64,000 nt of DNA, taken from the NCBI GenBank assembly GCA_964593375.1, contig CAZQIF010000001.1, positions 98,185 to 162,184 of the forward strand, written 5' to 3'. Source of the stretch: an uncultured Candidatus Saccharibacteria bacterium (GTDB taxonomy: Bacteria > Patescibacteriota > Minisyncoccia > Phycocordibacterales > UBA918). How positions within the stretch are numbered: position 1 is the first letter of the stretch; each line of letters starts with the position of its first letter. The notes beneath the pieces are model-generated. The model searched no databases, had not been told where the DNA came from, and was given only the letters and a program-made list of their open reading frames with translations. Both the position numbers and the translations under genes were made by a program. Positions 545 through 37,875 of this stretch are shown piece by piece.

Positions 545-756
545 CGGTGTCATTCCGGGCTTGACCCGGAATCCAGAGTCAGCAAGAAATATTCTAGATC
601 CTGAATCAAGTTCAGGATGACAAATAATACGCTTCTGCGACTATCGGCGTTTATCCGCGTATTTTCTGGATTGCTTCACTTCGTTCGCAATGACAACCAC
701 CGGAAAGCTTCGCTTTCCGGTGGTTGTAATAGCTAAGTGCTAACAGCTATAAGCTA
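545..756. repeat. Structured repeat element, copy A. It has an IR unit gtcattccgggcttgacccggaatccag, a hairpin atcctgaatcaagttcaggat, and a DR unit ctggattgcttcacttcgttcgcaatgac-aaccaccggaaag..ctttccggtggtt followed by gctaagtgctaa words.
   Basis: Several perfect hairpins were read directly from the sequence. Related copies lie at 1161-1300, 17075-17190, 18915-19035 and 37805-37875. Confidence 0.7.
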
Positions 757-762
757 TAATAA

Positions 763-793
763 TTGACTAGTGTGTAACCACTGATATTATTAT
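763..793 (+). promoter_or_regulatory. Putative sigma70-like promoter for the small ORF at 797-1156. The -35 is TTGACT and the -10 is tattat/attatt, with a 17-19 nt spacer.
   Basis: Sequence motif match only. Confidence 0.35.
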
Positions 794-796
794 CAT

Positions 797-1156
797 ATGA
801 AAAAGGTGACTCCCAAAAAACAAGCTAAGAAAAAGCTCTCCTTGAGAGGTGCAAAGATGATTGATGGACTTCATACAAATGATGACGTCAAGCGATACAT
901 TGGTGCAGTTACTGAACATTTTGAACATCAGGTGTCTGCAGTTGCTGAACAATTCGGTTCTGTACAGCAAAAACTTGATTCCCACACAGAAATGATTGGT
1001 CGGCTCATGATTGATGTACAGGAAATCAAGAACGACCTCAAGCAAAAGGTGAATCGTGACGAATTCGCACACCTCGAAAAACGAGTGCTTGCACTTGAAA
1101 TTGGTCGTGGTAGCGACAATCCGCGAACCACTCTGGTAAGAACACCTCATCGATAG
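797..1156 (+). CDS. Hypothetical small basic coiled-coil protein (119 aa), inserted between scpA and scpB
   Basis: An intact ORF with a Lys-rich N-terminus and a heptad-like middle. It is flanked by repeat copies A and B. I recognise no homolog. Confidence 0.4.
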   Translation: MKKVTPKKQAKKKLSLRGAKMIDGLHTNDDVKRYIGAVTEHFEHQVSAVAEQFGSVQQKLDSHTEMIGRLMIDVQEIKNDLKQKVNRDEFAHLEKRVLALEIGRGSDNPRTTLVRTPHR

Positions 1157-1160
1157 TATC

Positions 1161-1300
1161 TAGCTATTAGCACTTGGCTTCTGGATTCCGGGTCAAGCCC
1201 GGAATGACACTGATTTCTGAGTTTTTTCTGGATTGCCACGCTTCGCTCGCAAAGACAACCACCGGAAAGTGAAGCTTTCCGGTGGTTCTAAGCGCTATGT
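1161..1300. repeat. Structured repeat element, copy B. The IR unit ctggattccgggtcaagcccggaatgac at 1181-1208 is the exact reverse complement of the copy A unit at 548-575. The DR unit at 1228-1287 is in the same orientation as in copy A.
   Basis: Direct comparison of the two copies. Confidence 0.7.
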
Positions 1301-1376
1301 GCTTCGGACTACGGTCTAGTCGGTTTATTGACAGGTTGGGGGCGAAAAATGGCCAAAATGTTGGTATACTTTAACT

Positions 1377-1937
1377 ATGGACCTTGAACGGCACATTGAG
1401 GGTGTCCTGTTTTATGAAGCAGAACCCATGACGATTAAAGCTCTCGCGGGTTTTTTTGAACGTACCCCTGAAGAAATTCTTTCAGCAATTGAATCACTTT
1501 CACAAAGACTCCTAAATGGAGCAACACGCATCGTACGAACTGACACCACTGTCGAGCTTGTCACCGCACCTGAAGTAGCAGAGACTATTGAAAAACTTCG
1601 ACGTGATGACCTTAAACGCGACATCGGAAAAGCGGGCGCTGAAACACTTGCGATTATTTTATACAAAGGACAACTAAGTCGCGCTGAAATCGACAACATC
1701 CGAGGAGTGAACTCCTCTTTCATTCTTCGCAACCTACTCGTACGTGGCCTCATTGAACGACGACCACATCCACGCGACCAACGCTCTTTTATGTACGCAA
1801 TTACCTCATCACTTCTTGAACACCTCGGTATTACAAAGCGCGAAGAACTTCCACAATTTGCAGACATCATGAATGCGCTTGATACCTTTGAAAAGGAGCG
1901 AAATGATACACCAGAACAAGTCTCACTCACTGATTAA
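1377..1937 (+). CDS. scpB: Segregation and condensation protein B (ScpB)
   Basis: The N-terminal winged-helix region IEGVLFYEAEPMTIKALA and the RGV.SSFILRNLLVRGLIER motif are typical of ScpB. Confidence 0.9.
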   Translation: MDLERHIEGVLFYEAEPMTIKALAGFFERTPEEILSAIESLSQRLLNGATRIVRTDTTVELVTAPEVAETIEKLRRDDLKRDIGKAGAETLAIILYKGQLSRAEIDNIRGVNSSFILRNLLVRGLIERRPHPRDQRSFMYAITSSLLEHLGITKREELPQFADIMNALDTFEKERNDTPEQVSLTD

Positions 1938-1938
1938 T

Positions 1939-2982
1939 ATGCCACCAGAAACTGAACCAACAGAGGAGATTATTACTCCAATTGCTCAAATACCAGAACC
2001 GCCTCTGCCTGAGGCATGGCATGTTCCGGTACTAAGGCAACTCTTTGTAGCGCTCGGCATTCTTGCGGTGGTGTTTGGTTCAACGTATGCAGGAACACTT
2101 GCTTCACTCCGTAATCAAAAAGCTGATGTCACCTCAGATGTGCGTGTTGAGGCAACACTCGCAGATGTCTCACAAGCTGAACCGATGCTCTCAGAGTACT
2201 TCAACGATGTCGTACTCACTGCAAAATCTGCTTTCGTGTTTGATGTCCAAAAAGGAAAGGTACTCTTTAACAAAAATGGTGATGAGGAGCTTCCACTTGC
2301 TTCGGTTACAAAACTCATGACTGCACTTGTCGCCTATGAGCTTCTCGAAACAGGGGCAACCGTTCCTATTTCTGTCGATGCGATTCGTGAGAGTGGAGAC
2401 AGTGGCTTTACTGACGGGGAGACATTTAGTGCGCGCGACCTCATTGACCTTGTCCTCATTGAATCTTCAAACGACGGTGCACGTGCGCTTGCAGGAGCGG
2501 CAGGGGAAGCACTCGTGGAGAGCGACGACCCAAACAGCGTTTTTATTGAAGCGATGAATCTCAAAGCAGAAGAAATTGGTCTCACCCGTACTCATTTCAG
2601 TAATGCAACTGGGCTCGACCTTTCACTGACCGAAGCGGGTGCATATGGAAGCGCCCGCGATATGGCATTCCTTATGGAGTATATCGTCACTAAATATCCT
2701 GACCTCGTGGCCCTCACGAGCACCAAACTCACTAAGATTGATAATACTCAGGGTGATTACCATCTCGTGAAAAACACGAACGAGGCTGTAAGCGAAATAC
2801 CAGGGCTTATTGCTTCAAAGACCGGATACACCGCACTTGCGGGTGGTAACCTTGTCATTGCGTTTGAGGCAGGGCTCAACCACGTCATTGTTGTTGCAGT
2901 TCTCGGCTCAACTGAAACGGGTCGTTTCGAAGATGTGGCTCTCCTCAGTGAACGAGCACGAGATTATGTAACAAGTAAATAA
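1939..2982 (+). CDS. D-alanyl-D-alanine carboxypeptidase, serine peptidase family S11 (PBP5-like)
   Basis: SxxK is present as SVTKLMTA, SxN as ESSNDGA, and KTG as SKTGYT. A TM segment lies at the N-terminus. An alternative start at 1873 would overlap scpB. Confidence 0.85.
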   Translation: MPPETEPTEEIITPIAQIPEPPLPEAWHVPVLRQLFVALGILAVVFGSTYAGTLASLRNQKADVTSDVRVEATLADVSQAEPMLSEYFNDVVLTAKSAFVFDVQKGKVLFNKNGDEELPLASVTKLMTALVAYELLETGATVPISVDAIRESGDSGFTDGETFSARDLIDLVLIESSNDGARALAGAAGEALVESDDPNSVFIEAMNLKAEEIGLTRTHFSNATGLDLSLTEAGAYGSARDMAFLMEYIVTKYPDLVALTSTKLTKIDNTQGDYHLVKNTNEAVSEIPGLIASKTGYTALAGGNLVIAFEAGLNHVIVVAVLGSTETGRFEDVALLSERARDYVTSK

Positions 2983-2990
2983 TTCACCAT

Positions 2991-4064
2991 ATGGAAGCTT
3001 CACTTATTAAAGTTTTTGCGCCGACCGCATTCGCATTCGTTGTGGGTATTATCATTACTCCACTTGTGACGCACTACCTCTACACGTACAAAATGTGGAA
3101 GAAAAAGGCAGGGAAGGGTGCAGGATACGGTGGCGGGGAAACTCCTATCTTTGATGCACTCCATAAAGAGAAGGACACCAATACTCCGCGTATGGGTGGT
3201 GTCGTTATTTGGGCGAGTGTACTCATCACCATTTTCTGCCTTTGGACACTCCAGTTTCTCTTCCCCGAAAGTGGTTTTTCAAAACTCGATTTTCTCAGTC
3301 GTTCACAGACATGGCTTCCTTTGGGCGCACTTATTATTGGTGCCTTCGTTGGGTTTATTGATGATTTTCTCGTTATTCGAGGAACGGGGAAGCATTTTGC
3401 TGGTGGACTACCACTCAGCCAACGACTCGTTGTTGTTGCAATCACTGCTCTTTTTAGCGCGTGGTGGTTTTATGAAAAACTCGATGTCCATGAAGTATCC
3501 CTCATTGGATACGGACCTATTGATTTAGGAATATTATTCATTCCATTTTTTGTACTCGTAGCAGTAGCGATATATGCAAGTAGCGTCATCGACGGAATTG
3601 ATGGTCTCTCTGGTGGTACCTTCATGTTTATTTTTACTGCGTATGCCGGCATAGCACTTTTCCAGAATCAAATCGACCTCGCGGCATATTGTGCTACTCT
3701 TGTTGGAGGCATTCTTGCGTTCCTCTGGTTTAATGTTCCACCCGCTCGTTTCTATATGACCGAAACGGGTGTCATGGCGCTCACGATGACACTCACCATC
3801 GTTGCCTTCATGACTGATGTCATTGGGGGAGGGGAGGGTGTTTCAGTACTCCCCATTATCGGTATACTCCTCGTCATCACCGTTCTTTCGGATATTTTGC
3901 AAGTTTTTTCAAAAAAAGTGCTTAAGAGAAAAGTATTTCAAATTGCACCCATTCATCATCATTTTGAAGCCGTTGGATGGCCCGCACCAAAAGTCACGAT
4001 GCGCTATTGGATTTTAGGTTTTGTCTTTGCCATTATCGGTATTTTGCTCGCAATCGCGCTCTAA
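2991..4064 (+). CDS. mraY: Phospho-N-acetylmuramoyl-pentapeptide transferase MraY
   Basis: A polytopic membrane protein with the PIHHHFE signature. Confidence 0.95.
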   Translation: MEASLIKVFAPTAFAFVVGIIITPLVTHYLYTYKMWKKKAGKGAGYGGGETPIFDALHKEKDTNTPRMGGVVIWASVLITIFCLWTLQFLFPESGFSKLDFLSRSQTWLPLGALIIGAFVGFIDDFLVIRGTGKHFAGGLPLSQRLVVVAITALFSAWWFYEKLDVHEVSLIGYGPIDLGILFIPFFVLVAVAIYASSVIDGIDGLSGGTFMFIFTAYAGIALFQNQIDLAAYCATLVGGILAFLWFNVPPARFYMTETGVMALTMTLTIVAFMTDVIGGGEGVSVLPIIGILLVITVLSDILQVFSKKVLKRKVFQIAPIHHHFEAVGWPAPKVTMRYWILGFVFAIIGILLAIAL

Positions 4065-4080
4065 AATTTCTCATTCTCCT

Positions 4081-5190
4081 ATGCATCATACTATCGACAG
4101 AACACTTCTCATTCTCGTCGTCGTTATAGTTGCTATCGGCTTCTTCGTTTTTTCTTCTGCATCACTCGGACTTTTAGCGCGCACTGGAGCACAGTTTTCC
4201 TCGGTAGCGCTTAATCAAGTTCTCTTCGGTCTTATAGGTGGTATGATTGCGCTCCTCATAACAAGTTCTATTCACTACCGCGTGTGGCGACAATACGCAT
4301 TTTATATATTTTTAATTTCTCTTGGGCTCACGCTTCTCGTATTCGTGCCCGCACTCAACTTCGAACACGGCGGTGCGAGACGGTGGATTGAAGTCGGTTC
4401 GTTTACTTTTCAACCCGCTGAGGTTTTGAAGATTGGTTTCGTTATCTATATTGCCACGTGGCTCTCAGGTATGAAAAAACGTATCACTGAATTCAAAGCA
4501 GGAACGCTCACTTTTTTTGGCCTCATCGGAATTCTTGGTGTTGTCATGCTTCTTCAGCCTGACACCGACACGTTCCTCATCATTGTTACTGCTTCTCTCG
4601 CTATGTTTATTGTGGCGGGCGGACGAATTCGTGATGTGATTATTTTTATACTTATCGGTGTGACACTCCTCGTAGCACTCGCGTTTACCAGGCCCTATAT
4701 CATGGAGCGTTTCACTGTGTTTCTTGACCCCATGAGTGACCCACAAGGTTCCGGCTACCAAATTAAGCAATCGCTCATTGCGGTTGGTTCAGGTGGTATC
4801 ACCGGACGTGGTTTTGGCCAAAGTATTCAAAAATTTGAATACTTACCTGAGCCTATTGGGGACTCGATTTTTGCGGTATTTAGCGAAGAATTTGGATTCA
4901 TCGGCAGTGTGCTCCTCATATTGCTCTTTGTTGCCTTTACCTTTCGAGGATATCGCATTGCTACCCATGCTCCTGATCTTTTTGGCATGCTCATTGTGGT
5001 TGGACTCATCACACTCATCATCACACAAACATTTCTCAACATTTCCGGCATGCTCGCACTTGCACCACTCTCGGGGTTACCGCTACCACTCATTAGTCAT
5101 GGCGGAACCGCACTCCTTACCACACTTGCAAGCATCGGCATTGTACTCAATGTGTCAAAGTATCAACGCCATTTTGAGATACAGTCGTGA
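4081..5190 (+). CDS. ftsW: SEDS-family peptidoglycan glycosyltransferase FtsW/RodA
   Basis: A 10-TM protein with conserved GGxxR and the C-terminal PLPLISHGGT motif. It lies between mraY and murG. The start is taken at MHHTIDR. Confidence 0.85.
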   Translation: MHHTIDRTLLILVVVIVAIGFFVFSSASLGLLARTGAQFSSVALNQVLFGLIGGMIALLITSSIHYRVWRQYAFYIFLISLGLTLLVFVPALNFEHGGARRWIEVGSFTFQPAEVLKIGFVIYIATWLSGMKKRITEFKAGTLTFFGLIGILGVVMLLQPDTDTFLIIVTASLAMFIVAGGRIRDVIIFILIGVTLLVALAFTRPYIMERFTVFLDPMSDPQGSGYQIKQSLIAVGSGGITGRGFGQSIQKFEYLPEPIGDSIFAVFSEEFGFIGSVLLILLFVAFTFRGYRIATHAPDLFGMLIVVGLITLIITQTFLNISGMLALAPLSGLPLPLISHGGTALLTTLASIGIVLNVSKYQRHFEIQS

Positions 5191-5209
5191 TACCATATAG
5201 TCATCACCT

Positions 5210-6328
5210 ATGAGCAGAGCAGTTATCGTATTAGTGGGAGGAGGAACCGGCGGGCATTTTTACCCGCTCATGAGTATTGCTGAAGCACTTAACACAGCTC
5301 CAAAAAAGCCGACACTTTACTACATGGGTCCAGACCCATACGACAAAGCGACGCTCGATAAAGAACAAATTAGTTTCATCAGTTGTCCTGCCGGAAAACG
5401 ACGCAAATATTTTTCGCTTCTTAACTACCTCGATTTCTTTAAAACGCTCAGTGGCATTTTTGTTGCAGTCATAAAACTCTTCTCCATATACCCTGATGTC
5501 ATCATTAGCAAAGGTGGGTACACGAGTGTACCGATTGTGCTCGCCGGATGGTTTCTCCGTATTCCGATTATCGTCCATGAATCTGATGCTGCGGTAGGTT
5601 CAGCAAATAAACTTGCCGCAAAATTTGCCCGCGTTGTCCTTGTTTCATACAAGGAGACTGTTCAATTTTTCCCTGCAGAGAAAACAGCATTTGTGGGAAA
5701 TCCCATACGACACGAACTCCGCACCCAACCCACAAGTGCACCCCATGAGCGTCTCGGTATTGAACCAACACTTCCCATGATTCTCGTCCTCGGCGGTTCG
5801 CAGGGTGCAGAGCGACTCAATGAACTTATTCTTGACTCACTCGATGAGCTTCTTGTTGATTTCACTATCGTGCATCAAACCGGCGAAAGACATTTCAATG
5901 TTGTGTCAGGCTCTGCGCATGGACTCGTTCCTAATCCTGAACTTTTTAAACGATATCATCCAGTCCCATTCCTCGGTCCTGATTTACTTAATGATGCACT
6001 CCATACCGCGACTCTCATTATTTCACGCGCAGGAAGTGGCACCATTCACGAAATTGCCATCCACGGCAAACCTGCAATTCTCATTCCGATTCCTGAGTCA
6101 ATAAGTCACGACCAGCGCACAAATGCATTCACCTATGCACGTTCTGGTGGTGCAATTGTAATGGAAGAATCCAATTTTAGTGACGGCTTGCTTCGAGCTG
6201 AAATTGACCGTATTATAGGAAATCCCGATATTTATAGCGAAATGTCGAGTTCAGCGCTCACCTTTGGGCGCGCAGATGCGGGGGATACAATTGCACAGAT
6301 TACACTTGAACTCGCCGAAACTCACTAA
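5210..6328 (+). CDS. murG: UDP-GlcNAc:lipid I N-acetylglucosaminyltransferase MurG
   Basis: The N-terminus GGGTGGHFYP matches MurG. It has a GT28 fold and sits within the dcw context. Confidence 0.9.
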   Translation: MSRAVIVLVGGGTGGHFYPLMSIAEALNTAPKKPTLYYMGPDPYDKATLDKEQISFISCPAGKRRKYFSLLNYLDFFKTLSGIFVAVIKLFSIYPDVIISKGGYTSVPIVLAGWFLRIPIIVHESDAAVGSANKLAAKFARVVLVSYKETVQFFPAEKTAFVGNPIRHELRTQPTSAPHERLGIEPTLPMILVLGGSQGAERLNELILDSLDELLVDFTIVHQTGERHFNVVSGSAHGLVPNPELFKRYHPVPFLGPDLLNDALHTATLIISRAGSGTIHEIAIHGKPAILIPIPESISHDQRTNAFTYARSGGAIVMEESNFSDGLLRAEIDRIIGNPDIYSEMSSSALTFGRADAGDTIAQITLELAETH

Positions 6329-6333
6329 TCCTT

Positions 6334-7710: not shown

Positions 7711-7751
7711 CACATACCTTTTGACCAATTCTCTGTAAAGCTCAGTATACT

Positions 7752-9744: not shown

Positions 9745-9964
9745 AGCATATCTTCATATGCCTCATCTACTGTGTCGTCTGCATCAAAGTGATGGTTCAC
9801 CGTATATGTATACGACTCACACCACTTTGATTTGACTCCTTGTACCTGAGGCATCTGAAGGCATGCTCACAGCTGGTGCTTTTCAGGAGTGCAAACCAAA
9901 CATCTTGTTCTGGATATTTTAATAAACTTTCAACGAGTTCAGTACATACCTTGAGACGTAGGAT

Positions 9965-10006
9965 AGTACCTCTAAAACGACCTCGAGAGGTCATTTTAGA
10001 GGTACT
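9965..10006. repeat. 42-nt near-perfect palindrome agtacctctaaaacgacctcgagaggtcattttagaggtact
   Basis: Read directly. It lies within a 670-bp non-coding stretch upstream of the recombinase gene. Confidence 0.6.
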
Positions 10007-10418
10007 AGAGGTCCCGATACATACATCACACAAAGCGGATGAATAGGACTGGATTCCAGCTCATGGGCCAGAAAGACCAAAATGATGGAAAACAACCAAA
10101 TGAACGAAAAATGGTTTTTTATGATTTTTGCACAATTCAAATTTGTGCACGATATCAACCATCATGAGCAAGGGGAAGTGTGAACTATATTTTAGAAATT
10201 TTCTAACACAAATTACTTTCACACACTTTTTTCTCCGCAACTACAATTTTTTGATTTTCAGAGCAGGGGATAACTTGTTTGATTATATATGGGTAATTCT
10301 AGTATAGTACTGAGTATTAGAGATATTATACTCAGTTACAAGTGCCAGAGAATACCTTGTATTTTCAACACTTCACTCACTCCCCTCTAAGTAGATTGTT
10401 TACTATAATGAAACTGTT

Positions 10419-11390
10419 ATGACAAAGAAAACTACGGGAAAAAATGTGTTTCAACTGCTACCCTACATTGAAGATTTTTTGCTGTATATCCAAGCAAACA
10501 ATTATTCAGAAGAAACTTTATATAACTACGAGCGCGACTTGCTGACGTTCGATGCTTTTCTTTATGATGAAATGAGTAACCTCCCCTTCTCGAGCATAAC
10601 CAAGCGAACGGTCGAACAGTACAAAGCATATTTAAATTCTCGTGATCGAAAAACTGCTTCAGGAGACGATTCTGAACAGCGATTGAAGAGTGGGTCCATT
10701 AATCGTGCACTGACCTCACTTCGCAGGTACCTTGCGTATCTCATCGACATGGACTATGAAGCGCCCGTTGTTCCAGGTTCAATTAAACTCCTTCGTATGG
10801 AGAAGAAGCATGGTCAGGTAGCAGAACTAAATGAACTCATCGAACTCATCGAGTCACCGATGAAATTCGAAAAGGATAAGAGGGTTGCCCTTCGTAATCG
10901 AGCAGCACTTGAAACACTTTTTGCGAGTGGTATGCGTATATCAGAACTCATCAACTTAAAGCGAAACCAACTTGATAAATCTGGCCGAATTTTTATCCAA
11001 GGAAAAGGTAAGAAGCAAAGATTTATCTACCTCACTGAGCGTGCAATTAAGCACATTGGTTTCTATTTAGCAGAGCGTACGGATGACTTCCCCTACCTGT
11101 TTATTCCCGAACGAGGACTCAATGTCAAAGTCAAAAACAAACACATTTCTCCGAATTACCTGCAGATGAAAATAAAAAAATACCGTGAACTACTCGGTAT
11201 TAATGTTCCAACTAGTGCCCACTCACTGCGTCACGGTTTTGCAACATATCTCGCAGAAAAAGGTGCAAACCCTGCTGCCATCCAAATTCTCCTCGGACAT
11301 GAGTCACTTGATACCACCACGAGATACGTGCACGCTTCAGATAAGTATGCCGAGAGTACCCATAAGCAGTTCCACCCATTAAAGAAATGA
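10419..11390 (+). CDS. Tyrosine site-specific recombinase, XerC/XerD family
   Basis: The catalytic motifs RISELINL, HSLRHGFAT and LLGHESLDTTTRYVH are present, the last containing the catalytic Tyr. Confidence 0.85.
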   Translation: MTKKTTGKNVFQLLPYIEDFLLYIQANNYSEETLYNYERDLLTFDAFLYDEMSNLPFSSITKRTVEQYKAYLNSRDRKTASGDDSEQRLKSGSINRALTSLRRYLAYLIDMDYEAPVVPGSIKLLRMEKKHGQVAELNELIELIESPMKFEKDKRVALRNRAALETLFASGMRISELINLKRNQLDKSGRIFIQGKGKKQRFIYLTERAIKHIGFYLAERTDDFPYLFIPERGLNVKVKNKHISPNYLQMKIKKYRELLGINVPTSAHSLRHGFATYLAEKGANPAAIQILLGHESLDTTTRYVHASDKYAESTHKQFHPLKK

Positions 11391-17074: not shown

Positions 17075-17190
17075 TATCATGCCAAAACATAGAAAATAGA
17101 ATATGGAATATGGAATAGTGAATATGAAAACGAGCGATTAGCTGTTAGCACCTAGCTCTTAGAGCTAATCGCTAAGTGCTAACTAACTAC
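17075..17190. repeat. Structured repeat element, copy C. It has a 7-mer tandem (aatatgg)x4 at 17099-17128 and the hairpin agcgattagctgttagcacctagctcttagagctaatcgct at 17133-17173, followed by a gctaagtgctaa word.
   Basis: Read directly. It shares words with copies A, B and D. Confidence 0.6.
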
Positions 17191-17780: not shown

Positions 17781-17916
17781 AGAGATAGCATAGCATAAAC
17801 GCGGAGGGACGCAGACAAGACGCGGATGTACGCAGAAAAGGATTTGGCTTAAATAATAATTTTTCTTATCACAAAATTGTGGAGTGCCAAATGTGCTTGC
17901 ACATTACCTACTGTGC

Positions 17917-17944
17917 TTGACATTAATCGTGAGTATGCTATGAT
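17917..17944 (+). promoter_or_regulatory. Consensus sigma70-like promoter, TTGACA-16 nt-TATGAT
   Basis: Exact -35 and near-consensus -10 hexamers were read directly. The promoter points toward 17950-18215. Confidence 0.6.
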
Positions 17945-17949
17945 ATTCG

Positions 17950-18215
17950 CGTTCAGGGACAGCAAACTCCTTGGGCAAATTTATAGAAATGTAGAGTTTG
18001 TGGTTCAGGTGTAAAAAGGAGGCTGGTATCCCCTGTAAAAACTACCTCAGCAGTTCAAGAGACCCGGAGCTAAGCATCTCCGTTTAAAGTGCCAATGTAG
18101 TACCCGGTCACCGCTGAGCTCGACTCCGCGGTGACCGGCCATCAATTCTAGTTCTAAGGACCAGTACGACCGCGCCCATTCATACCATATTCAACTGTGG
18201 TGAGGCGCGGTTTTT
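17950..18215 (+). ncRNA. Candidate stand-alone small RNA of about 265 nt. It has no ORF and contains the internal hairpin ccggtcaccgctgagctcgactccgcggtgaccgg. It ends at a terminator stem accgcgcc...ggcgcggt followed by ttttt.
   Basis: The assignment rests on a strong promoter plus a terminator and on the absence of coding potential. Its identity (6S, SRP or other) could not be confirmed. Confidence 0.35.
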
Positions 18216-18248
18216 ATATTTATATTGAAATTTTGTTACAATGTAATC

Positions 18249-18914: not shown

Positions 18915-19035
18915 CTAGCACGTAGCTATTAGCACTTAGCCTCTGGATCGCTTCACTTCGTTCGCGTTGACGACCGGCGCGCGAAGCGCGCCGGTCGTTG
19001 CTAAGTGCTAAAAGCTAGGTGCTAATAGCTTATAT
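18915..19035. repeat. Structured repeat element, copy D. The outer inverted words are agctattagcacttagc / gctaagtgctaa..gctaatagct. The inner sequence is ctggatcgcttcacttcgttcgcgttgac followed by the hairpin gacgaccggcgcgcgaagcgcgccggtcgt.
   Basis: Read directly. It is homologous to the DR unit of copies A and B. Confidence 0.7.
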
Positions 19036-25814: not shown

Positions 25815-25827
25815 CTATCTCAGTTAG

Positions 25828-25866
25828 AAAACCGCCCGCATGACTTCGTCATGCGGGCGGTTTTCG
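25828..25866. terminator. Bidirectional intrinsic terminator aaaaccgcccgcatgac..gtcatgcgggcggtttt
   Basis: A perfect stem flanked by A and T runs, placed between convergent genes. Confidence 0.8.
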
Positions 25867-29462: not shown

Positions 29463-29535
29463 CTGGTTTCTCAGTAATCAGTTATCAGTACTCAGTTACC
29501 TGATAACTGCTAACTGAGTACTAAACTGAACCACG
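29463..29535. repeat. Nested inverted repeats: cagttatcag..ctgataactg and agtactcagtta..taactgagtact
   Basis: Read directly. The word tactcagttac is shared with the inverted repeat upstream of the recombinase gene at 10307-10339. Confidence 0.6.
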
Positions 29536-29571
29536 GACAAAAGTCTGAGTTTTTGTTAGAATAGCGCTACT

Positions 29572-31047: not shown

Positions 31048-31075
31048 AAAAAGCGCCCCATCGGGCGCTTTTTGT
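31047..31075 (+). terminator. Intrinsic terminator aaaaagcgccccatcgggcgctttttg
   Basis: A GC stem followed by a T run, immediately after the cysS stop. Confidence 0.8.
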
Positions 31076-32825: not shown

Positions 32826-32839
32826 TTTGATTCACTCCA

Positions 32840-33454
32840 ATGACGACACTCGAAGAACTTATCAAACTATTTGAACGCTTCCCTGGCATCGGAGGAAGAC
32901 AGGCGCGTCGTTTTGCGTATCATCTTCTTAATGAAGAGGCTGACACTGTGGCAAGACTCTCCGAACTTATTCGTAACATCCAAGGCACAGTGACTGAATG
33001 TTCTTCCTGCTTCCGCTTTTTCACAAGTGAGCGTGGAAACAGTGAATGTAGAGTGTGTAGTGACATGGCTCGTGACAATACCAAACTTGCGATTGTAGAG
33101 CGGGAGTCTGATTTAGATGCCCTTGAACGCTCTAAAACGTATGAAGGCTACTACTTTGTGCTCGGTGGCACCGTTCCCCTCCTTAATTCAGAAGATATTA
33201 AGAAACTTCGTGGTGGTGCACTCAAAAGTATTGTCCTTCAAAAAGCACAAAAGGGCCTCACAGAAATTATTCTCGCTTTTTCGGTAAATCCCGACGGTGA
33301 AAACACTGCACGATATGTAGAATCAATTCTCAAAGACATTGTTGCGGAATACAAAATTAAAGTGAGTCAGCTCGGGCGTGGGCTTTCGACTGGCTCTGAA
33401 CTTGAGTATGCAGATCCTGAGACGATTAAGAACGCTTTGCAAAATCGTTTATAG
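32840..33454 (+). CDS. recR: Recombination protein RecR
   Basis: The N-terminal HhH LPGIGGRQARRFAYHLL, a C4 zinc finger and a Toprim region are present. Confidence 0.9.
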   Translation: MTTLEELIKLFERFPGIGGRQARRFAYHLLNEEADTVARLSELIRNIQGTVTECSSCFRFFTSERGNSECRVCSDMARDNTKLAIVERESDLDALERSKTYEGYYFVLGGTVPLLNSEDIKKLRGGALKSIVLQKAQKGLTEIILAFSVNPDGENTARYVESILKDIVAEYKIKVSQLGRGLSTGSELEYADPETIKNALQNRL

Positions 33455-33542
33455 AAGATACTGAATATTGAATAGAAAATATTAAATAAGAAATCCCCGC
33501 GAGCCGTGGCTTGCGGGGATGAAAAAGATGTCCATATAGTTC

Positions 33543-33806
33543 TTATTTGGTCACGCGGAATTGTGCAAGTGCGAACAACAGTGTACTTATCACAACACCC
33601 AGAACGAGTGACCACCAGAATTCAATATCTAGAACAAATGCAACCCCACACACGAACCATGCGACGAGAAAGAGAGACCGAGTGACGTAGACCCCTTTGA
33701 GAAAATATGACCGTTCAAGTACAGAATCCACGCTGTTGAGCTGATAGACTGCCACAAAAACTTCAGTCATTGCAACAAAGAAAACTGCGACTCCGAAGTA
33801 CACCAT
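33543..33806 (-). CDS. Hypothetical small 3-TM membrane protein
   Basis: The ORF has a consensus promoter 60 nt upstream. The start is taken at MVYFGV; the ORF is open to 33905. Confidence 0.35.
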   Translation of the reverse strand: MVYFGVAVFFVAMTEVFVAVYQLNSVDSVLERSYFLKGVYVTRSLFLVAWFVCGVAFVLDIEFWWSLVLGVVISTLLFALAQFRVTK

Positions 33807-33876
33807 GACACCTTGCAAATCGAAAGAATTCACGCGTATTCTCCCAAAAACACTTCGGACGTCCCGAATTAAAAAT

Positions 33877-33905
33877 ATTGTACAATATTCTATATTGTGT
33901 GTCAA
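33877..33905 (-). promoter_or_regulatory. Consensus sigma70-like promoter on the minus strand, TTGACA-17 nt-TACAAT
   Basis: The reverse complement of tgtcaa ... attgta, read directly. Confidence 0.55.
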
Positions 33906-33906
33906 C

Positions 33907-33937
33907 GAAAACCCCCGCGCTTTTGCGCGGGGTTTTT
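33907..33937. terminator. Intrinsic terminator aaaacccccgcgcttttgcgcggggttttt at the 3' end of rplU
   Basis: A perfect stem flanked by T and A runs. Confidence 0.8.
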
Positions 33938-33941
33938 GTGA

Positions 33942-34289
33942 TTATTTAAGTGATTCGATTGCTACTGTAGCATATTTCTGTCGATGACCAATCTTTCGGT
34001 CGCGGTTTGATTTTGCCTTGTAGCGAACGATGGTGATTTTCTTTCCTTTCTTTAGCCCTTTGTATGTTCCCTGCACCTTGGCTCCCTTAATGTATGGCGC
34101 GCCAATCGTGGTGTCAGAACCATTATCTACCATAAGGACCTTATCGAAGGTTACCTTGTCTCCTTCCTTGATTTCACTATCGAGGAGCTCAACTTCAACA
34201 ACATCTCCTACTGAGACCATATACTGCTTTCCGCCAGTCTCAATGACCGCGAATTCAGTGCTTAATGCTGTGGTTTCCTTCTTTTTCAT
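33942..34289 (-). CDS. rplU: 50S ribosomal protein L21
   Basis: FAVIETGGKQYMVSVGDVV matches L21. Confidence 0.95.
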   Translation of the reverse strand: MKKKETTALSTEFAVIETGGKQYMVSVGDVVEVELLDSEIKEGDKVTFDKVLMVDNGSDTTIGAPYIKGAKVQGTYKGLKKGKKITIVRYKAKSNRDRKIGHRQKYATVAIESLK

Positions 34290-34368
34290 AACGTGCCCGT
34301 GATTCTACTAGAAAACCCTAAAATATGCAACTAAAGAACGGTTGCTCTAATAAAACAATAATATGCTA

Positions 34369-34396
34369 TTGACTAATTTATAATCTATGATATGAT
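34369..34396 (+). promoter_or_regulatory. Putative promoter TTGACT-16 nt-TATGAT with RBS aggaga before the ATG at 34430
   Basis: Motifs read directly. Confidence 0.45.
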
Positions 34397-34429
34397 ATTT
34401 ATGAAGTTCACAACATACAGGAGAAGTTC

Positions 34430-34687
34430 ATGGACAAAACGAATAAGTACGGATGGATTCTTATGATTGTTGTCGGCCTATTGCTTATAGTTATCGCCGA
34501 ACGAGGCGATACGGTAAGCTCTGAGATTATCACGCTCGCGCAGACCGCGTGCACGACAAACGGAGGTCTGGACACAATCGAAACGAACCATGTGCCAGTC
34601 CTTGGCATAGACCTCCGGAGCGAGTATAGGGTTAGCTGTAAAAACGGCATGGCAGTCACCATGTCAAACCTGAAACTCGGAAAGTAG
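34430..34687 (+). CDS. Hypothetical small secreted/membrane-anchored protein (85 aa, two Cys)
   Basis: Supported by a promoter, an RBS, an N-terminal hydrophobic segment and a downstream terminator. Confidence 0.45.
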   Translation: MDKTNKYGWILMIVVGLLLIVIAERGDTVSSEIITLAQTACTTNGGLDTIETNHVPVLGIDLRSEYRVSCKNGMAVTMSNLKLGK

Positions 34688-34693
34688 CATCCC

Positions 34694-34733
34694 AAGACCC
34701 GCCCACGAGAAAGACTCGTCCGCGGGTCTTTTT
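34694..34733 (+). terminator. Intrinsic terminator gacccgc...gcgggtc followed by ttttt
   Basis: A stem-loop followed by a T run. Confidence 0.6.
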
Positions 34734-34743
34734 CTTATTTTAA

Positions 34744-34770
34744 TTATTTAGGGGTCCGACCCCTAAATAA
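34744..34770. repeat. Hairpin repeat ttatttaggggtccgacccctaaataa, copy 1 of 3
   Basis: A perfect hairpin immediately 3' of the stop of a minus-strand gene. Copies lie at 36100-36124 and, half-length, at 39405-39422. Confidence 0.7.
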
Positions 34771-36003
34771 TTACTGAGGATCCTGGGGCTTCTCGAGCGG
34801 TGATGATTTTCGCTTACCGCACGCCTGACACACGGGAAGATCTACAAATCGTGCGTTATGGCAGTGTTCGCAACTTGCATAGACTTGATACCCACAACGT
34901 GGACAAAATACCATTGTGTTATCGAGCGTAAATGAGCACTTTGGACACTTGTGGTCTTTGAGGCGTCTGATTGCGACAACAGCGCTGTTGTACACGCGCT
35001 TTTGAATGACATACACAATCCCTCCAAAAAGCAGAATAACGAGCACCACTGACCCGTAATAGAGCACGTAGCGCAATATGGCGACCTGCATGAAGATATC
35101 AATAATCAGTTGAATGAGTGCGTGTGGAATAATTTCGTAGAGGAACATACCCACAACTTGGAGGAATAGGAGTGAGGAAGCGACAAAAATTGCACCTGCA
35201 ATAATCGTATACGGGCTATTTCCTTTCTTGAAACGGAAGTAGTAGCGCATGCTGAGGACAAAGAACGGAATGATGAAAAGCAGAGTGAGTCCAAACACCT
35301 TGAGGCGATACCAATTCACTGCTTTGTTGTAGAGTGAGAGGGCTTTGTCATACTGTGCCTCGTAAGTTGGAACCTTCGTTTGTATCTGCGCAAGAAGTGC
35401 ATCTCTTTCTCGCGTGAGTGCAATTACCTGTGCTTGGCGTAATGCTATTTCATCGTCAACGGTTACAACGGCATTTTGTTCTGTCCCCACATCGAATGCA
35501 CCCTCGATTTGTGCCTGTCGTTCTTGCAGACTAATGTCGTAGTTTGAGACTGCCTGACTCCGCTTATATTTAAGCTGTTCTATAGTGTTGCTCAAGGTTG
35601 AGACTTCAGTACTTTTTGCAAAATACTGTTTCAGCAAGGGTTCCACCGAAGTGATACTGCTACTTACACCAGATTCATTTTCATAGGTACTGAATGTACA
35701 GTTCCCTTTTTGAAGTGATGAATTCGAGTAATATCCATAGTCGTAACCGTAGCCAGAGTACTCATTCGTGTTCGTTTGTACATTAAGTACGGAAGCGAAC
35801 TCACGAGCGCAAGAAGAAATGGTTACCGGTCTTTCTGGAATACTGCGTAAATCTCCAAAGACTGTTTGTGAAATTCCAACAATAAAAAGTGCCATCAAAA
35901 TGAGCAGAAAATATCCAATTTTTGTTGTCTTTTTTTCGCTTATCTCCTCATACGCATCTCCATCTACCGGGCTCTGTTTCTTACCAAAAAACCACATATA
36001 CAA
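34771..36003 (-). CDS. Hypothetical membrane protein with a Tyr/Gly-rich segment, a coiled coil, multiple TM helices and a C-terminal double zinc ribbon
   Basis: CPKC...CPRCG...CEHC...CQACG at the C-terminus. I recognise no family. Confidence 0.5.
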   Translation of the reverse strand: MYMWFFGKKQSPVDGDAYEEISEKKTTKIGYFLLILMALFIVGISQTVFGDLRSIPERPVTISSCAREFASVLNVQTNTNEYSGYGYDYGYYSNSSLQKGNCTFSTYENESGVSSSITSVEPLLKQYFAKSTEVSTLSNTIEQLKYKRSQAVSNYDISLQERQAQIEGAFDVGTEQNAVVTVDDEIALRQAQVIALTRERDALLAQIQTKVPTYEAQYDKALSLYNKAVNWYRLKVFGLTLLFIIPFFVLSMRYYFRFKKGNSPYTIIAGAIFVASSLLFLQVVGMFLYEIIPHALIQLIIDIFMQVAILRYVLYYGSVVLVILLFGGIVYVIQKRVYNSAVVAIRRLKDHKCPKCSFTLDNTMVFCPRCGYQVYASCEHCHNARFVDLPVCQACGKRKSSPLEKPQDPQ

Positions 36004-36099
36004 TGTTTAATACAATAAATACTTCACCATTAATACTACCACCCGCTCCTCTGCGATTATTGTTCACATCTATATAAAGTGGACAGATATAAATCCACC

Positions 36100-36124
36100 T
36101 ATTTAGGGGTCTGACCCCTAAATA
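36100..36124. repeat. Hairpin repeat tatttaggggtctgacccctaaata, copy 2
   Basis: A perfect hairpin immediately 3' of the rmuC stop. Confidence 0.7.
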
Positions 36125-36126
36125 AA

Positions 36127-37293
36127 TTACTCAATCTCCTGAGGTTTTTGTGCTTCAATCTCGAACACTTTATGTGGAATCCTGGGTTCTACTTCGATTT
36201 GTGGAATATCGGGCTCAACATCAATTCGAGCTCCTTTATCATTTATCCTGTCAATTACTGGATATACACGAGCGTCCCATGACCCTGCCATTTCATTGAA
36301 TTTATTTGTTGCCTGTTTGAGGGCACCTCCAATTCCGACGACATGTCCCATAAAAATTTTTAATCTGTCACCCAACAATGCAATGTCTTTTACTACTCGT
36401 TGAATATTTTCGGTAGACCTATGTTGTTTCCAAGCATGTGCTATAAGCACGATTAAGGGCATTATTGTTGCTGGACTTGCAATCATGACATTTTGTTCCT
36501 GGGCTTCACTATAGAGATTTGCATCTTCCTGAAAGATTGTTCTCACAGCAGGTTCACTTGGAACATACATTATGACGTAGGGAATCTTTCCATCAATTTT
36601 TTGATATTTCTTTGATGACAAGTCTTTAACTCTCCCCCGAATGTCCTGAATGAACTTTGCAATATGGCTTTTCCTTTTTTCTTCATCCTTTTCTTCAACA
36701 TATTTAAAATATTCCTGTAAACTTGCCTTGGAGTCAATTGCAAGTTGCGAATCATTTGGCAGATTGATTATCACGTCAGGACGCTGAGATTGGTCTTCGT
36801 CATTCTGAATCGTTTCTTGTGTTAAAAAATTAACCCCCTCAGACAAGCCAGACTGTATGAGAAGATCTTTAAGTGCCGCCTCCCCCCAACGCCCCCTGAT
36901 TCCGCTTGCAGATGAAAGCACAGTTTTAAGGTTTGTTGCTGTTTCTTCCACTTTTGTGCTTGCAGTCAAAACTGATTTGATATTTTCACTTAGAGCACCA
37001 AACTGCTCTTTTCTTTCTTTCTCATATATGTTCACCGCATCCTTCAGCCCTTGTACAGTTTGATGTATTTCCCTATTTTTATCTTCAAAGTCATTTCGAA
37101 AGTCATTTTTTTGTTCTCTCAGAACATCAGTTGCGATTGATTTAAATAACGGCCCAAGTTGGTCATTATTTCCCTTACTTTCATCAAGAATTCTTTTTTC
37201 CGCTGCTAATTCTTTATTTTTAATATATGAGGCTACAAAAAAGCCAATAATACCTCCTAAAAACATTCCTATGAGTATTTGAATTGAATCCAT
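36127..37293 (-). CDS. rmuC: DNA recombination protein RmuC
   Basis: An N-terminal TM segment, a coiled coil, GRWGE and PDVIINLPNDSQLAIDSK motifs. Confidence 0.85.
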   Translation of the reverse strand: MDSIQILIGMFLGGIIGFFVASYIKNKELAAEKRILDESKGNNDQLGPLFKSIATDVLREQKNDFRNDFEDKNREIHQTVQGLKDAVNIYEKERKEQFGALSENIKSVLTASTKVEETATNLKTVLSSASGIRGRWGEAALKDLLIQSGLSEGVNFLTQETIQNDEDQSQRPDVIINLPNDSQLAIDSKASLQEYFKYVEEKDEEKRKSHIAKFIQDIRGRVKDLSSKKYQKIDGKIPYVIMYVPSEPAVRTIFQEDANLYSEAQEQNVMIASPATIMPLIVLIAHAWKQHRSTENIQRVVKDIALLGDRLKIFMGHVVGIGGALKQATNKFNEMAGSWDARVYPVIDRINDKGARIDVEPDIPQIEVEPRIPHKVFEIEAQKPQEIE

Positions 37294-37349
37294 TACGTAA
37301 TTCTATCATGATAACTATGGTAATATATAGTTCACATAATAAAGAAACT

Positions 37350-37805
37350 ATGGAACTACACAATCAAATCAAAGACGAACTCAAAATTGCCATGAAGGCA
37401 CATGATGCAGTACGGCTTCGCACGGTGCGTAGTATGCTGACAGCCTTTATGAACGAACTCGTGGCGACAAACCGTAAGCCACAGGAAACTCTTGTTGACG
37501 TTGAAGTTTTAACAGTGATTAAACGCCTCGCAAAACAGCGAAAAGAATCAATTGTACAATTTGATGCTGCAGGCCGAACTGATCTTTCAGGCCCCGAAAA
37601 GGAAGAACTCGTGGTTCTCGAATCCTACCTCCCTACCCTCATGTCACGTGACGCAATCCGCCCGATTGTAGAAGCGAAGATTACTGAACTTGGATTTACT
37701 GATAAATCTAAAATGGGCATGCTCATTGGTTCCTTAATGAAGGAACTTGCAGGTAAGGCAGATGGAGCAGACGTCAAAGCTGTAGTTGAGGAATTGCTCA
37801 AATAA
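37350..37805 (+). CDS. GatB/YqeY domain protein
   Basis: ELKIAMKAHDAVRL..LR matches the YqeY pattern. The ORF is open from 37284. Confidence 0.85.
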   Translation: MELHNQIKDELKIAMKAHDAVRLRTVRSMLTAFMNELVATNRKPQETLVDVEVLTVIKRLAKQRKESIVQFDAAGRTDLSGPEKEELVVLESYLPTLMSRDAIRPIVEAKITELGFTDKSKMGMLIGSLMKELAGKADGADVKAVVEELLK

Positions 37806-37875
37806 TTTGAAACTGGATTCCGGCTCGTCGGCCGGAACGACAACCACCGCGGAAAGTGAAACTTTCCGCGGTGGT
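37805..37875. repeat. Structured repeat element, copy E: ctggattccggctcgtcggccggaacgac-aaccaccgcggaaagtgaaactttccgcggtggtt
   Basis: Two perfect hairpins. It is homologous to the DR unit of copies A and B. Confidence 0.7.

Follow-up and report, generated by a model that had tools for sequence, protein, structure and literature searches.

Intergenic mosaic elements that probably join a widespread NTS/dRS3-like DNA hairpin repeat with private modules

Results

Seven hairpin units at four intergenic loci

The dispersed repeats of the window, by which we mean the whole 64-kb stretch of DNA that was analyzed, are best explained as DNA-level intergenic mosaic elements whose conserved module belongs to the NTS/dRS3-like class of Ssn-related motifs (SRM) and is joined with private modules; we give this reading a probability of about 0.65. 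The core that they conserve is the local form of a DNA hairpin repeat that is already known and very widespread. It is present in the window as seven units of the form CTGG-A(stem-loop)T-GAC at four intergenic loci, 546-760, 1160-1322, 18915-19030, and 37813-37876 (elements A, B, C, and E; all features are given on the plus strand). Read on the opposite strand, the unit is GTC-palindrome-C(CAG), and in all seven the GTC abuts the palindrome on its 5' side and the C on its 3' side. The covariance model R1, built from 92 units that all come from contigs outside the window, recovered the seven units at E ≤ 0.013 with 15-40 bits and nothing else credible in the 64 kb. The pattern CTGGATY-N(8-30)-GACRAC occurs four times in the window, against 0.14 expected. 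Another site, 10049-10080, resembles the unit but is not recovered by R1.

Three units lie at 545-756, two of them as an inverted doublet. Its left half, U1 (549-576, GTC-ATTCCGGG-CTTGA-CCCGGAAT-C-CAG), has a perfect 8-bp stem, reads in the nuclease (NTS) orientation along the plus strand, and is matched by R1 at 547-578 on the minus strand (39.4 bits, E 3e-11). The right half, U2 (594-621, CTAGATCCTGAATCAAGTTCAGGATGAC, 8-bp stem), follows after 17 nt with its CTGG decayed to CTAG and is matched at 592-623(+) with 15.0 bits (E 0.013), and U3 (666-694, CTGGATTGCTTCACTTCGTTCGCAATGAC) is matched at 664-696(+) with 34.6 bits. The two units at 1161-1300 are U4 (1181-1208, CTGGATTCCGGGTCAAGCCCGGAATGAC; 1179-1210(+), 40.4 bits, E 1.5e-11), the exact reverse complement of U1, and U5 (1228-1256, CTGGATTGCCACGCTTCGCTCGCAAAGAC; 1226-1258(+), 20.2 bits, E 2e-4). 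Element C contains U6 (18943-18971, CTGGATCGCTTCACTTCGTTCGCGTTGAC; 18941-18973(+), 20.1 bits, E 2e-4), and element E contains U7 (37813-37841, CTGGATTCCGGCTCGTCGGCCGGAACGAC; 37811-37843(+), 29.3 bits, E 1e-7), which starts 7 nt past the yqeY stop codon.

An earlier, sequence-only reading had counted at least five copies of an ordered set of modules, often between convergent genes. Four of the loci do carry units, but 17075-17190 holds a heptad palindrome only, with neither a CTGGAT unit nor a GC hairpin. The CTGGATY...GACRAC module and the hairpin are present as described, but the stem word GCTTCACTTCGTTCGC is found only in two copies, plus a variant in a third, and the stems of the other four units read CCGGG (twice), CCGGC, and CCTGAA (once each). 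The loci are indeed intergenic; however, convergent genes flank only 18915-19030, and each of the other loci is placed between two plus-strand genes.

The GC hairpin and the heptad arms are separate modules

Four of the seven units are directly followed by a GC-rich hairpin, HP2, which is real and perfect, as had been proposed. HP2-A (693-727, ACAACCACCGGAAAGC-TTC-GCTTTCCGGTGGTTGT) is a perfect 16-bp hairpin sharing the AC of the GAC of U3, HP2-B (1257-1287, AACCACCGGAAAG-TGAAG-CTTTCCGGTGGTT) has a perfect 13-bp stem, and HP2-C (18969-18999, (G)ACGACCGGCGCGC-GAA-GCGCGCCGGTCGT(T)) overlaps the GAC of U6. HP2-E (37842-37876, AACCACCGCGGAAAG-TGAAA-CTTTCCGCGGTGGTT, then TGCGTTTTAC) repeats the hairpin of HP2-A and HP2-B but has an inserted CG in each arm, and the AACCACCGGAAAG/CTTTCCGGTGGTT arms are common to three of the hairpins. 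Elsewhere, 1 of 527 units has a strong hairpin adjoining its GAC side, and an exact-pattern scan of 185,579 species genomes for the unit/HP2 junction returned chance-level singletons only. HP2 is private to the lineage, and the composite of unit and HP2 is not general.

Inverted arms of 7-base repeats (TTAGCAC/GTGCTAA) are present at three loci. Element A has a right arm at 730-759 (TAGCTAAGTGCTAACAGCTATAAGCTATAA). In element B, the left arm (1160-1179, CTAGCTATTAGCACTTGGCT) pairs in the fold with the right arm (1288-1322, CTAAGCG CTATGTG CTTCGGA CTACGGT CTAGTCG), which ends at the conserved scpB promoter region; the complement of this right arm, GTCCGAAGCAC, is found again in the left arm of a relative (L172). 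In element C, the left arm (18915-18941, CTAGCAC GTAGCTA TTAGCAC TTAGCC) and the right arm (19000-19030, GCTAAGT GCTAAAA GCTAGGT GCTAATA GC, with periods 7 and 14) pair and close a 113-nt hairpin as its outer stem (z = -8.3). With up to two mismatches, GCTAAGTGCTAA has 12 occurrences (3.8 expected), of which 10 are inside the claimed loci. The site at 17131-17186 (AGCGATTAGCT...AGCTAATCGCT plus GCTAAGTGCTAA) is an arms-only palindrome with no unit, HP2, or R1 match (fold z = -3.6). An unrelated GAATATG array precedes this palindrome, and heptad arrays of unrelated sequence are present elsewhere in the window. In other contigs, a heptad array lies next to the GAC side of 3.9% of units, against 0.7% in controls, an association that the literature cited here does not mention.

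Elements A, B, and C are collinear across some 100 nt, and the modules had been taken for parts of one element. A mosaic of three parts that can occur separately, namely, the Ssn-type unit, the private GC hairpin, and the heptad arms, describes them better: L172 has hairpin and arms without a unit, 17131-17186 has arms only, and 37813-37876 has unit and hairpin without arms.

Comparison with related genomes shows the elements to be insertions. The scpA-scpB spacer measures 886 bp here, whereas in L172, whose ScpB is 89% identical, it is 165 nt and consists of arms and hairpin only, and in two distant relatives (L173 and L002) it is 66-75 nt. The elements therefore arrived by insertion, and the scpA-scpB site shows insertion polymorphism. 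A contig of an independent Logan assembly (L001) breaks exactly at 1181, the start of U4.

The unit beyond the window

The unit is present far beyond the source genome. Metagenomic and viral contigs containing identical 27- and 28-mers number in the hundreds: the 27-mer core of U3 is in more than 120 metagenome contigs with a GC content of 29-65%, the reverse-complement 28-mer of U1 has six occurrences among the IMG/VR matches, and two unit types are present in viral contigs (more than 120 and 40). Near-identical units are carried on plasmids of Nostoc, Fischerella, Brasilonema, Legionella, Novosphingobium, and Methylobacterium. In other contigs, 130 of 509 candidates chosen by the flanks alone (CTGGA...TGAC) have at least four nested pairs, against 2.3 expected, and double-sided changes were observed at six of eight stem pairs (109 cells against 30 in shuffles, with none of 500 shuffles as high). 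The flanks stay fixed while the stem covaries, as the sequence-only reading had noticed from the window copies; this is a genuine repeat family and not a set of independent terminators. Relative to flanking genes, 546 units in other contigs include 50 in sense, 74 in antisense, 57 in convergent, and 34 in divergent positions; only 37% of units lie in ORFs although ORFs make up 80% of the sequence, a depletion.

Discussion

Ssn-related motifs are sites bound and cut, as single-stranded DNA only, by Ssn GIY-YIG nucleases; for SsnA, which is inactive on RNA, the GTC 5' and the C 3' of the palindrome are reported as critical for cleavage and binding (Chenal et al., Nat Commun 2025, PMC11893778). 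The window units share with NTS/SRM an approximately 28-nt hairpin whose flanks are oriented (GTC 5' and C, then CAG or YRG, 3'), loop and stem sequences that differ between lineages, many intergenic copies as singles or inverted pairs, and a distribution across many phyla (PMC11893778). Other contigs also have identical units beside small GIY-YIG genes: Ssn-like genes found by HMM search in four metagenomic contigs (L235, L239, L241, and L265) are directly flanked by GTCATTGCGAACGAAGTGAAGCAATC, which is exactly reverse-complementary to the core of U3 (666-694); U6 (18943-18971) differs from this core at three outer-stem bases. Of six homologues in viral contigs, five have doublets with the same type of flank next to them, four on both sides. 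Unlike the described systems, the published degenerate SRM pattern matched none of the seven window units, and no GIY-YIG gene was found in the 64-kb window by regular expression, Pfam on small ORFs, or the Ssn HMM on all six-frame ORFs. Moreover, the host is apparently of CPR/Patescibacteria type, whereas most described examples are from Pseudomonadati, and in four of the seven units a perfect GC hairpin is fused to the side where cutting is predicted, an arrangement that is rare elsewhere.

Other repeats resemble the elements in part. The dRS3 repeat of Neisseria (ATTCCC-N8-GGGAAT) has the same ATTCC...GGAAT palindrome, and NIME units are likewise interspersed with other short modules in intergenic mosaics that vary between related genomes (PMC1797815). 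However, the window stem reads CCGGG, CCGGC, or TTGC instead of CCCGC, HP2 and the heptad arms are unrelated to the Neisseria RS elements, and the window arrays are much smaller (1-3 units per locus). The over-represented heptameric tandem repeats of bacteria are also intergenic period-7 arrays, sometimes hairpin-capable inverted pairs, whose length and sequence differ between close relatives (PMC4692102), but those of the window are outer arms of a composite palindrome beside Ssn-type units.

Could the composites of unit and HP2 simply be intrinsic terminators or stabilizers of mRNA 3' ends, alike through local duplication? All four lie in sense just past the stop codon of a plus-strand gene, their RNA folds are very stable (z -4.6 to -8.3), and HP2 resembles other long perfect GC terminator stems of this genome, e.g., 25827-25865 and 39369-39401. 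HP2-E, with 16 pairs and the only T-rich tail among the HP2 copies, was called terminator-like and probably also ends yqeY transcription, but HP2-A, HP2-B, and HP2-C have no such tail and were not called. The unit, moreover, occurs in both gene orientations across phyla, including U1 in the window, and the conserved unpaired CTGG and GAC flanks and the link to GIY-YIG genes would be left unexplained. As a full account, this is unlikely, and a transcript-end function may be a secondary role of HP2. We consider it still less likely that the composite of about 100 nt is a MITE with the heptad arms as terminal inverted repeats for a DDE transposase encoded elsewhere, and unit and HP2 as passengers. 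Inverted arms do bracket elements B and C and that of the relative, A, B, and C align collinearly, the scpA-scpB insertion is polymorphic, and a footprint or an empty derivative could explain 17131-17186. Yet the arms are tandem heptads of variable length and not defined termini, element E has none, unrelated heptad arrays occur elsewhere in the window, no transposase gene was found in the window, and no target-site duplication is clear, a possible TGAAAA being seen on both sides of element C only.

The sequence-only reading had left the choice between a functional RNA and a REP/MITE-like family; the dispersed REP/MITE-like character was retained and the RNA was not, the verdict being a DNA repeat of the REP/NIME-like kind. 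A structured small RNA family encoded by the elements is highly improbable. The folds are stable, and the U1+U2 doublet gave the sole weak Rfam match, to RF02625 WsnRNA46, catalogued as a Wolbachia sRNA, whose inverted-doublet consensus (uGuCau...GGauCcaG-spacer-CugGauuCC...GGauGaCacC) has the flanks and layout of window 546-622. However, this family is Wolbachia-specific, the match of 18.9 bits is far below the gathering score of 65.3, no Rfam family reached threshold in the scan, and such Wolbachia repeats are classed as SRMs (PMC11893778). No consistently placed promoter was found upstream of the elements, the family uses both orientations, SsnA does not act on RNA, and the covariation is expected of single-stranded DNA as much as of RNA. 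Equally remote is a classical REP/REPIN mobilized by a RAYT (IS200/IS605-type Y1 transposase), a parallel drawn by the authors of the Ssn work themselves (PMC11893778). REP, BIME, and REPIN are short palindromes outside genes, with a flank that orients them, short-spacer inverted doublets, and mosaic clusters, are thought to work as single-stranded DNA hairpins, and can double as mRNA 3' hairpins (PMC3116915), but the REP consensus is species-specific, whereas units of the window type are near-identical across phyla. It is a GIY-YIG nuclease gene, and not a Y1 HUH transposase, that adjoins identical units, and no Y1_Tnp domain was detected among the small and unannotated window ORFs scanned against Pfam. 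REP sequences carry a GTAG-type tetranucleotide as flank, whereas that of the unit is GTC.

As a DNA-level mosaic built around an Ssn-type unit, the elements would work as follows. Where DNA is single-stranded, for example during uptake, replication, or transfer, the unit would fold into its hairpin, which a small single-domain GIY-YIG nuclease (Ssn) would bind, as in characterized members, where binding needs the stem and the C just 3' of it and the cut then falls a few nucleotides 5' of GTC. Units of this class multiply in genomes as singles, inverted doublets, and mosaics, like REP/BIME and the NIME repeats of Neisseria. In this CPR-like lineage, the unit would have become joined to two private modules, HP2 abutting the GAC and the inverted heptad arms, which extend the hairpin, and the resulting composite of about 100 nt would have been copied to several gene ends. 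We infer that the source organism may have an Ssn nuclease gene and that the window units would be cut by this nuclease, with a biological effect that may bear, for example, on the recombination of incoming DNA.

Repeat units and their modules

The window has a GC content of about 44%, and its gene set is compact and made up of housekeeping genes. A homologue 61% identical to its ScpB comes from what one source calls a 'Candidatus Pacebacteria' MAG, and on this ground we regard the organism as probably CPR/Patescibacteria-like. Within the window we recognized seven copies of a smaller repeating unit, CTGG-A[stem-loop]T-GAC, where about 0.2 would be expected under a strict definition. The copies, hereafter U1 to U7, lie at 549-576, 594-621, 666-694, 1181-1208, 1228-1256, 18943-18971 and 37813-37841, and all seven have stems of 5-8 bp. 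U1 is inverted with respect to the other units and forms with U2, from which it is separated by 17 nt, an inverted doublet; the CTGG of U2 has decayed to CTAG, and U4 is the exact reverse complement of U1. Pattern counts over the window gave four matches to CTGGATY-N(8-30)-GACRAC (0.14 expected) and 12 GCTAAGTGCTAA-like words (3.8 expected), 10 of which fall inside the loci originally claimed.

Two further modules accompany the units. A perfect GC-rich hairpin, HP2, directly follows U3, U5, U6 and U7, which belong to elements A, B, C and E, respectively; three of its copies have AACCACCGGAAAG/CTTTCCGGTGGTT in common, and the copy at 37842-37876 carries a CG inserted in both arms. Inverted arms made of 7-base repeats (TTAGCAC / GTGCTAA) flank elements B and C on both sides and element A on one side only. 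Elements A, B and C are collinear across ~100 nt, and the arms of element C pair in the fold to give a 113-nt composite hairpin (z = -8.3). The modules are separable, because arms and hairpin occur without the unit in a related contig (L172, described below), arms occur alone at 17131-17186, and unit and hairpin occur without arms at 37813-37876. One of the five copies listed in the sequence-only reading, 17075-17190, has to be withdrawn: it lacks the unit, and heptad arms at 17131-17186 and a GAATATG array of unrelated sequence are all that it contains.

That array (GAATATG x4, 17099-17126) and a TCAGTAA-type inverted pair forming a hairpin at 29471-29530 are unrelated to the arms, and period-7 repeats are a general habit of the intergenic DNA of this genome. 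Beside two of the repeat loci, at 495-540 and 17799-17840, the words GCGGA / CGCRGA recur every ~10-11 nt, about one helical turn; they may form an array bound by a protein. Element E is followed closely downstream by an operon (37936-38408) of two small, overlapping ORFs that has a promoter and a terminator of its own. The window also holds a HicA-type toxin gene (46373-46609) and a gene with the competence-regulator domain TfoX_N (49811-50149).

Insertion between scpA and scpB

The gap between scpA (26-490) and scpB (1377-1937) measures 886 bp and contains element A, an ORF of 119 aa and element B. In two comparison contigs, L173 and L002, whose ScpB proteins are 78% and 75% identical to that of the window, the spacer is 66-75 nt long and has neither elements nor ORF. 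In L172, where ScpB is 89% identical, the spacer is 165 nt and consists, in this order, of a left heptad arm, the HP2-related hairpin ACGTCAGGAAAGC-AAA-GCTTTCCGGCGT and a right heptad arm, without the U unit and without the ORF. The insertion polymorphism that the sequence-only reading had proposed to look for is thus seen at this locus, and on this comparison the elements between scpA and scpB are insertions and not ancestral sequence. Moreover, L001, a contig of this organism from an independent assembly, starts at exactly position 1181, and a break at that position is repeat-like behaviour.

The ORF between the two elements (797-1156) encodes a coiled-coil-like protein and has a promoter-like site of its own at 763-790. 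Its 27 homologues, found mostly on short contigs, make up a small but real protein family in which no Pfam domain was detected, and the ORF is absent from this position in the relatives. We considered it as cargo of the elements and rejected the idea, as its homologues elsewhere have their own promoter and no flanking units.

Other places in the window bear signs of insertion. Ahead of a tyrosine recombinase gene (10419-11390) lies a stretch of 674 nt without genes that includes a 44-nt perfect palindrome (~9966-10009); the syntenic place in L002 has neither the gene nor this stretch, and 9745-11390 probably represents an insertion, either whole or as a remnant. Around tRNA-Glu (44558-44629), a near-copy of the 3' end of the gene is found at 44820-44834 and an inverted copy at 44672-44686, and the 27-mer GTGCCGTTYTTGTTAATGRYCTCACGG at 44656 is found again at 45694; the repeats of this region (44558-45720) look like scars of integration at tRNA-Glu.

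Covariation and spread outside the window

A covariance model, R1, was built from 92 units, all of them from contigs outside the window. When run on the 64 kb, it returned exactly the seven window units, at 15-40 bits and E <= 0.013, and no other credible match; a look-alike at 10049-10080, which we had considered as a decayed unit, was not recovered. The dispersed repeat family proposed from sequence alone is real, and further copies are present in metagenome, viral and plasmid DNA.

The claim that the flanks are conserved and the stems compensated also holds. Hairpin formation was assessed on CTGGA...TGAC candidates from the fetched contigs that were chosen by their flanks only and lie outside every search pattern; at least 4 nested pairs were found in 130 of 509, against 2.3 expected from shuffled inner sequences. 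In the 92 distinct units, two-sided changes were seen at six of the eight stem pairs while the flanks stay fixed, and the two-sided change cells number 109 against 30 in column shuffles (0 of 500 shuffles reach 109); these units had been pre-selected for at least 5 outer pairs, which biases the percentage paired and leaves the pair types unbiased, such that the 509 candidates are the unbiased test. The covariation of the 92 units collapses in slid registers.

The units are widely spread. A degenerate form of the U3 type matched 40 IMG/VR contigs, mostly as inverted pairs GTCATTGCGAGG..GCAATCCAG-N16-CTGGATTGCTTCGCTTCGCTCGCAATGAC, and the CCGG-type unit was found on at least 120 IMG/VR contigs, the exact 28-mer of U1/U4 occurring 6 times among the matches listed. 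The word GGATYGCTTCACTTCGTTCGC, the variant GCTTCACTTCGTTCGC that had been taken as private to the lineage, had 0 matches in viral contigs but occurs on more than 120 metagenome contigs with a GC content of 29-65%. Annotated plasmids of Nostoc punctiforme, Fischerella, Brasilonema, Legionella lytica, Novosphingobium and Methylobacterium carry the unit at 93-100% identity, and it is intergenic in both of the records inspected (Nostoc punctiforme and Legionella lytica).

Relation to Ssn-related motifs

A class of DNA hairpin repeats linked to Ssn, small GIY-YIG single-strand nucleases, has been characterized in recent work. The Neisseria Transformation Sequence (NTS), defined as CGTCATTCCCGCGMAVGCGGGAATCYRG, contains the classical dRS3 repeat (Chenal et al., 2025; PMC11893778), which is the ATTCCC-N8-GGGAAT repeat of NIMEs (PMC1797815); the 'Ssn-related motifs' (SRMs) make up the wider class beyond the NTS, and such repeats have been reported in Neisseria, Rhizorhabdus, Wolbachia and Rickettsia, among others (PMC11893778). 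SsnA, a 94-aa single-domain GIY-YIG protein (cd10448), binds the hairpin in single-stranded DNA only, and neither duplex nor RNA; for cutting, the three nucleotides 5' of the palindrome weigh most, and for binding, the C just 3' of it, the loop being irrelevant, and ssn genes typically have repeats on their flanks (PMC11893778).

The window units fit the anatomy of this class, that is, an inverted repeat of 20-50 nt that can fold into a hairpin when single-stranded. On the opposite strand they read GTC, a palindrome starting with AT or a near variant, and then C and CAG, with GTC directly 5' and C directly 3' of the palindrome in all seven units on the appropriate strand. Like SRMs, they are present in many copies with a covarying stem and fixed flanks. 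The published SRM pattern, HGTCWYN(0-2)YYVSBRHN(0-5)WNVSBRGN(0-2)RNCYNB, made by hand from 29 genomes (PMC11893778), has no match in the window on either strand and misses all seven units; it demands a CCCGC-like stem, and it also misses TTGC-stem units that lie beside GIY-YIG genes in the contigs L235, L239, L241 and L265.

These four contigs were fetched solely for containing the U3-type word, and an HMM of Ssn-like proteins revealed an Ssn-like GIY-YIG gene in each of them, directly adjoined by GTCATTGCGAACGAAGTGAAGCAATC units. The gene product of L235 matches Pfam GIY-YIG at 1e-16 and is of a cyanobacterial type (Rivularia, Calothrix, Nostoc), with at least 7,995 proteins matching at E <= 1e-10. 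Five of six viral-contig homologues of the L235-type protein are flanked by doublets with GTCA...CCAG / CTGG...TGAC, four of them on both sides; these same-flank doublets lie around L298-L302. In the 64-kb window itself, no GIY-YIG gene was found by a motif regular expression, by Pfam on the small and unannotated ORFs, or by the Ssn HMM on all six-frame ORFs. A full-text literature search with the sequence of the TTGC-type unit and the peptide LLRFARND returned unrelated primers only.

On the grounds of this anatomy, the match to R1 and the identity to gene-linked units elsewhere, we file the unit as an SRM-type repeat; judged from sequence, its core appears to be a member of a known, recently characterized class of DNA hairpin repeats. 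Local novelty lies in the lineage of the host and in the joining of the unit to a private hairpin and to heptad arms.

Alternative readings

The family had been suggested to be either a functional RNA or REP/MITE-like, and the evidence favours a DNA repeat and does not support the functional RNA, since the units occur in both orientations and match no Rfam family at threshold. Among 546 units on other contigs, 37% are inside naive ORFs, which cover 80% of the sequence; the intergenic units with co-directional neighbours are 50 sense and 74 antisense, and a further 57 are convergent and 34 divergent, a mix of orientations unlike that of a strand-specific RNA element. At Rfam gathering thresholds, tRNA-Glu alone passes in the window and nothing passes at 20 unit-rich loci. 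The best sub-threshold match to a bacterial family on the elements is WsnRNA46 of Wolbachia (18.9 versus 65.3 bits), which falls on the U1-U2 doublet and whose consensus is the same inverted doublet; other weak matches in E-value scans are generic hairpins, such as mir-30 at 22.9 bits. As for the mobile families, REP repeats have a GTAG-type 5' tetranucleotide, whereas the flank of the unit is GTC(A); the window ORFs scanned against Pfam, which were the small and unannotated ones, gave no match to RAYT/Y1_Tnp, and the gene that adjoins identical units elsewhere is a GIY-YIG nuclease instead of a RAYT. A MITE would agree with the inverted heptad arms that L172 and elements B and C possess; these are variable tandem arrays, element E is armless, and no convincing target-site duplication was seen at the elements.

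Among the HP2 copies, HP2-E has a T-rich tail and is called terminator-like; HP2-A, HP2-B and HP2-C lack a T tract and receive no such call. All four composites of unit and HP2 lie in sense orientation just after a plus-strand stop codon, and together with the tail and call of HP2-E this leads us to regard HP2 as a terminator-type hairpin of this lineage, which probably still terminates at yqeY and was copied along with the unit.

A stretch of 444 nt free of genes (17781-18224) contains a promoter close to consensus, TTGACA-16-TATGAT with TG (17917-17944), and, at 18193-18212, a hairpin of terminator type. It had no match in Rfam at E <= 1 and is a possible non-coding RNA gene missing from the annotation. 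The palindrome TTTAGGGGTCYGACCCCTAAA, unrelated to the units, lies at 34747-34767, 36102-36122 and 39408-39422, all intergenic and each at the 3' end of a minus-strand gene (5 strand-wise matches against 0.01 expected). Over almost all the 64 kb, the plus strand has a negative GC skew, and the nuclease-readable (GTC) orientation is on the minus strand in six of the seven units, a number too small to interpret.

The HP2 composite and period-7 arrays

A strong hairpin abuts the GAC side in only 1 of 527 units elsewhere, compared with four of seven in the window. Two low-GC metagenome contigs carry similar unit-hairpin composites, and a search of species-representative genomes for the unit/HP2 junction, GACAACCACCG..GAAAG..CTTTC, gave 9 singletons from unrelated phyla, which is chance level. 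On the strand that the nuclease would read, HP2 (13-16 bp, perfect) ends at or overlaps the GTC in all four U+HP2 copies, and therefore the position at which cutting is predicted, a few nucleotides 5' of the GTC, would be enclosed in a 13-16-bp duplex. Duplex is not cut by Ssn enzymes (PMC11893778). Such a 'locked' composite could bind the nuclease uncleaved, as a self-protected site or a decoy, and possibly double as a terminator, a model that we consider improbable.

Period-7 arrays lie beside units elsewhere, across phyla, in 3.9% of cases on the cut side, the figures being 0.9% for the opposite side and 0.7% for controls, and periods other than 7 show no enrichment; the strong general association that we had perceived by eye was abandoned, as the excess in these counts is modest and on one side only. 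Repeated nicking with slipped repair could have left the arrays on the cut side as scars. Both points, the burial of the cut site by HP2 and the period-7 enrichment, are suggestive only. In five metagenome contigs (L184, L197, L201, L215 and L224), some units are followed by the 3' half CGCAATGAC plus ~10-12 nt repeated in tandem 2-4 times, often with a period near 21.

Significance

For annotation, the units should be masked as repeats and not called as sRNAs, terminators or short ORFs. The published SRM search pattern is too narrow, as it misses TTGC- and CCGG-stem units that flank Ssn-like genes, and the presence of one 27-mer on contigs whose GC content spans 29-65%, and on cyanobacterial and proteobacterial plasmids at 93-100% identity, needs explaining. 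The recently characterized class of Ssn-site repeats is now placed in a small-genome, putatively CPR-like bacterium. Bacteria of this kind are thought to depend on DNA uptake, and a system that modulates how incoming single-stranded DNA is integrated would matter to such organisms.
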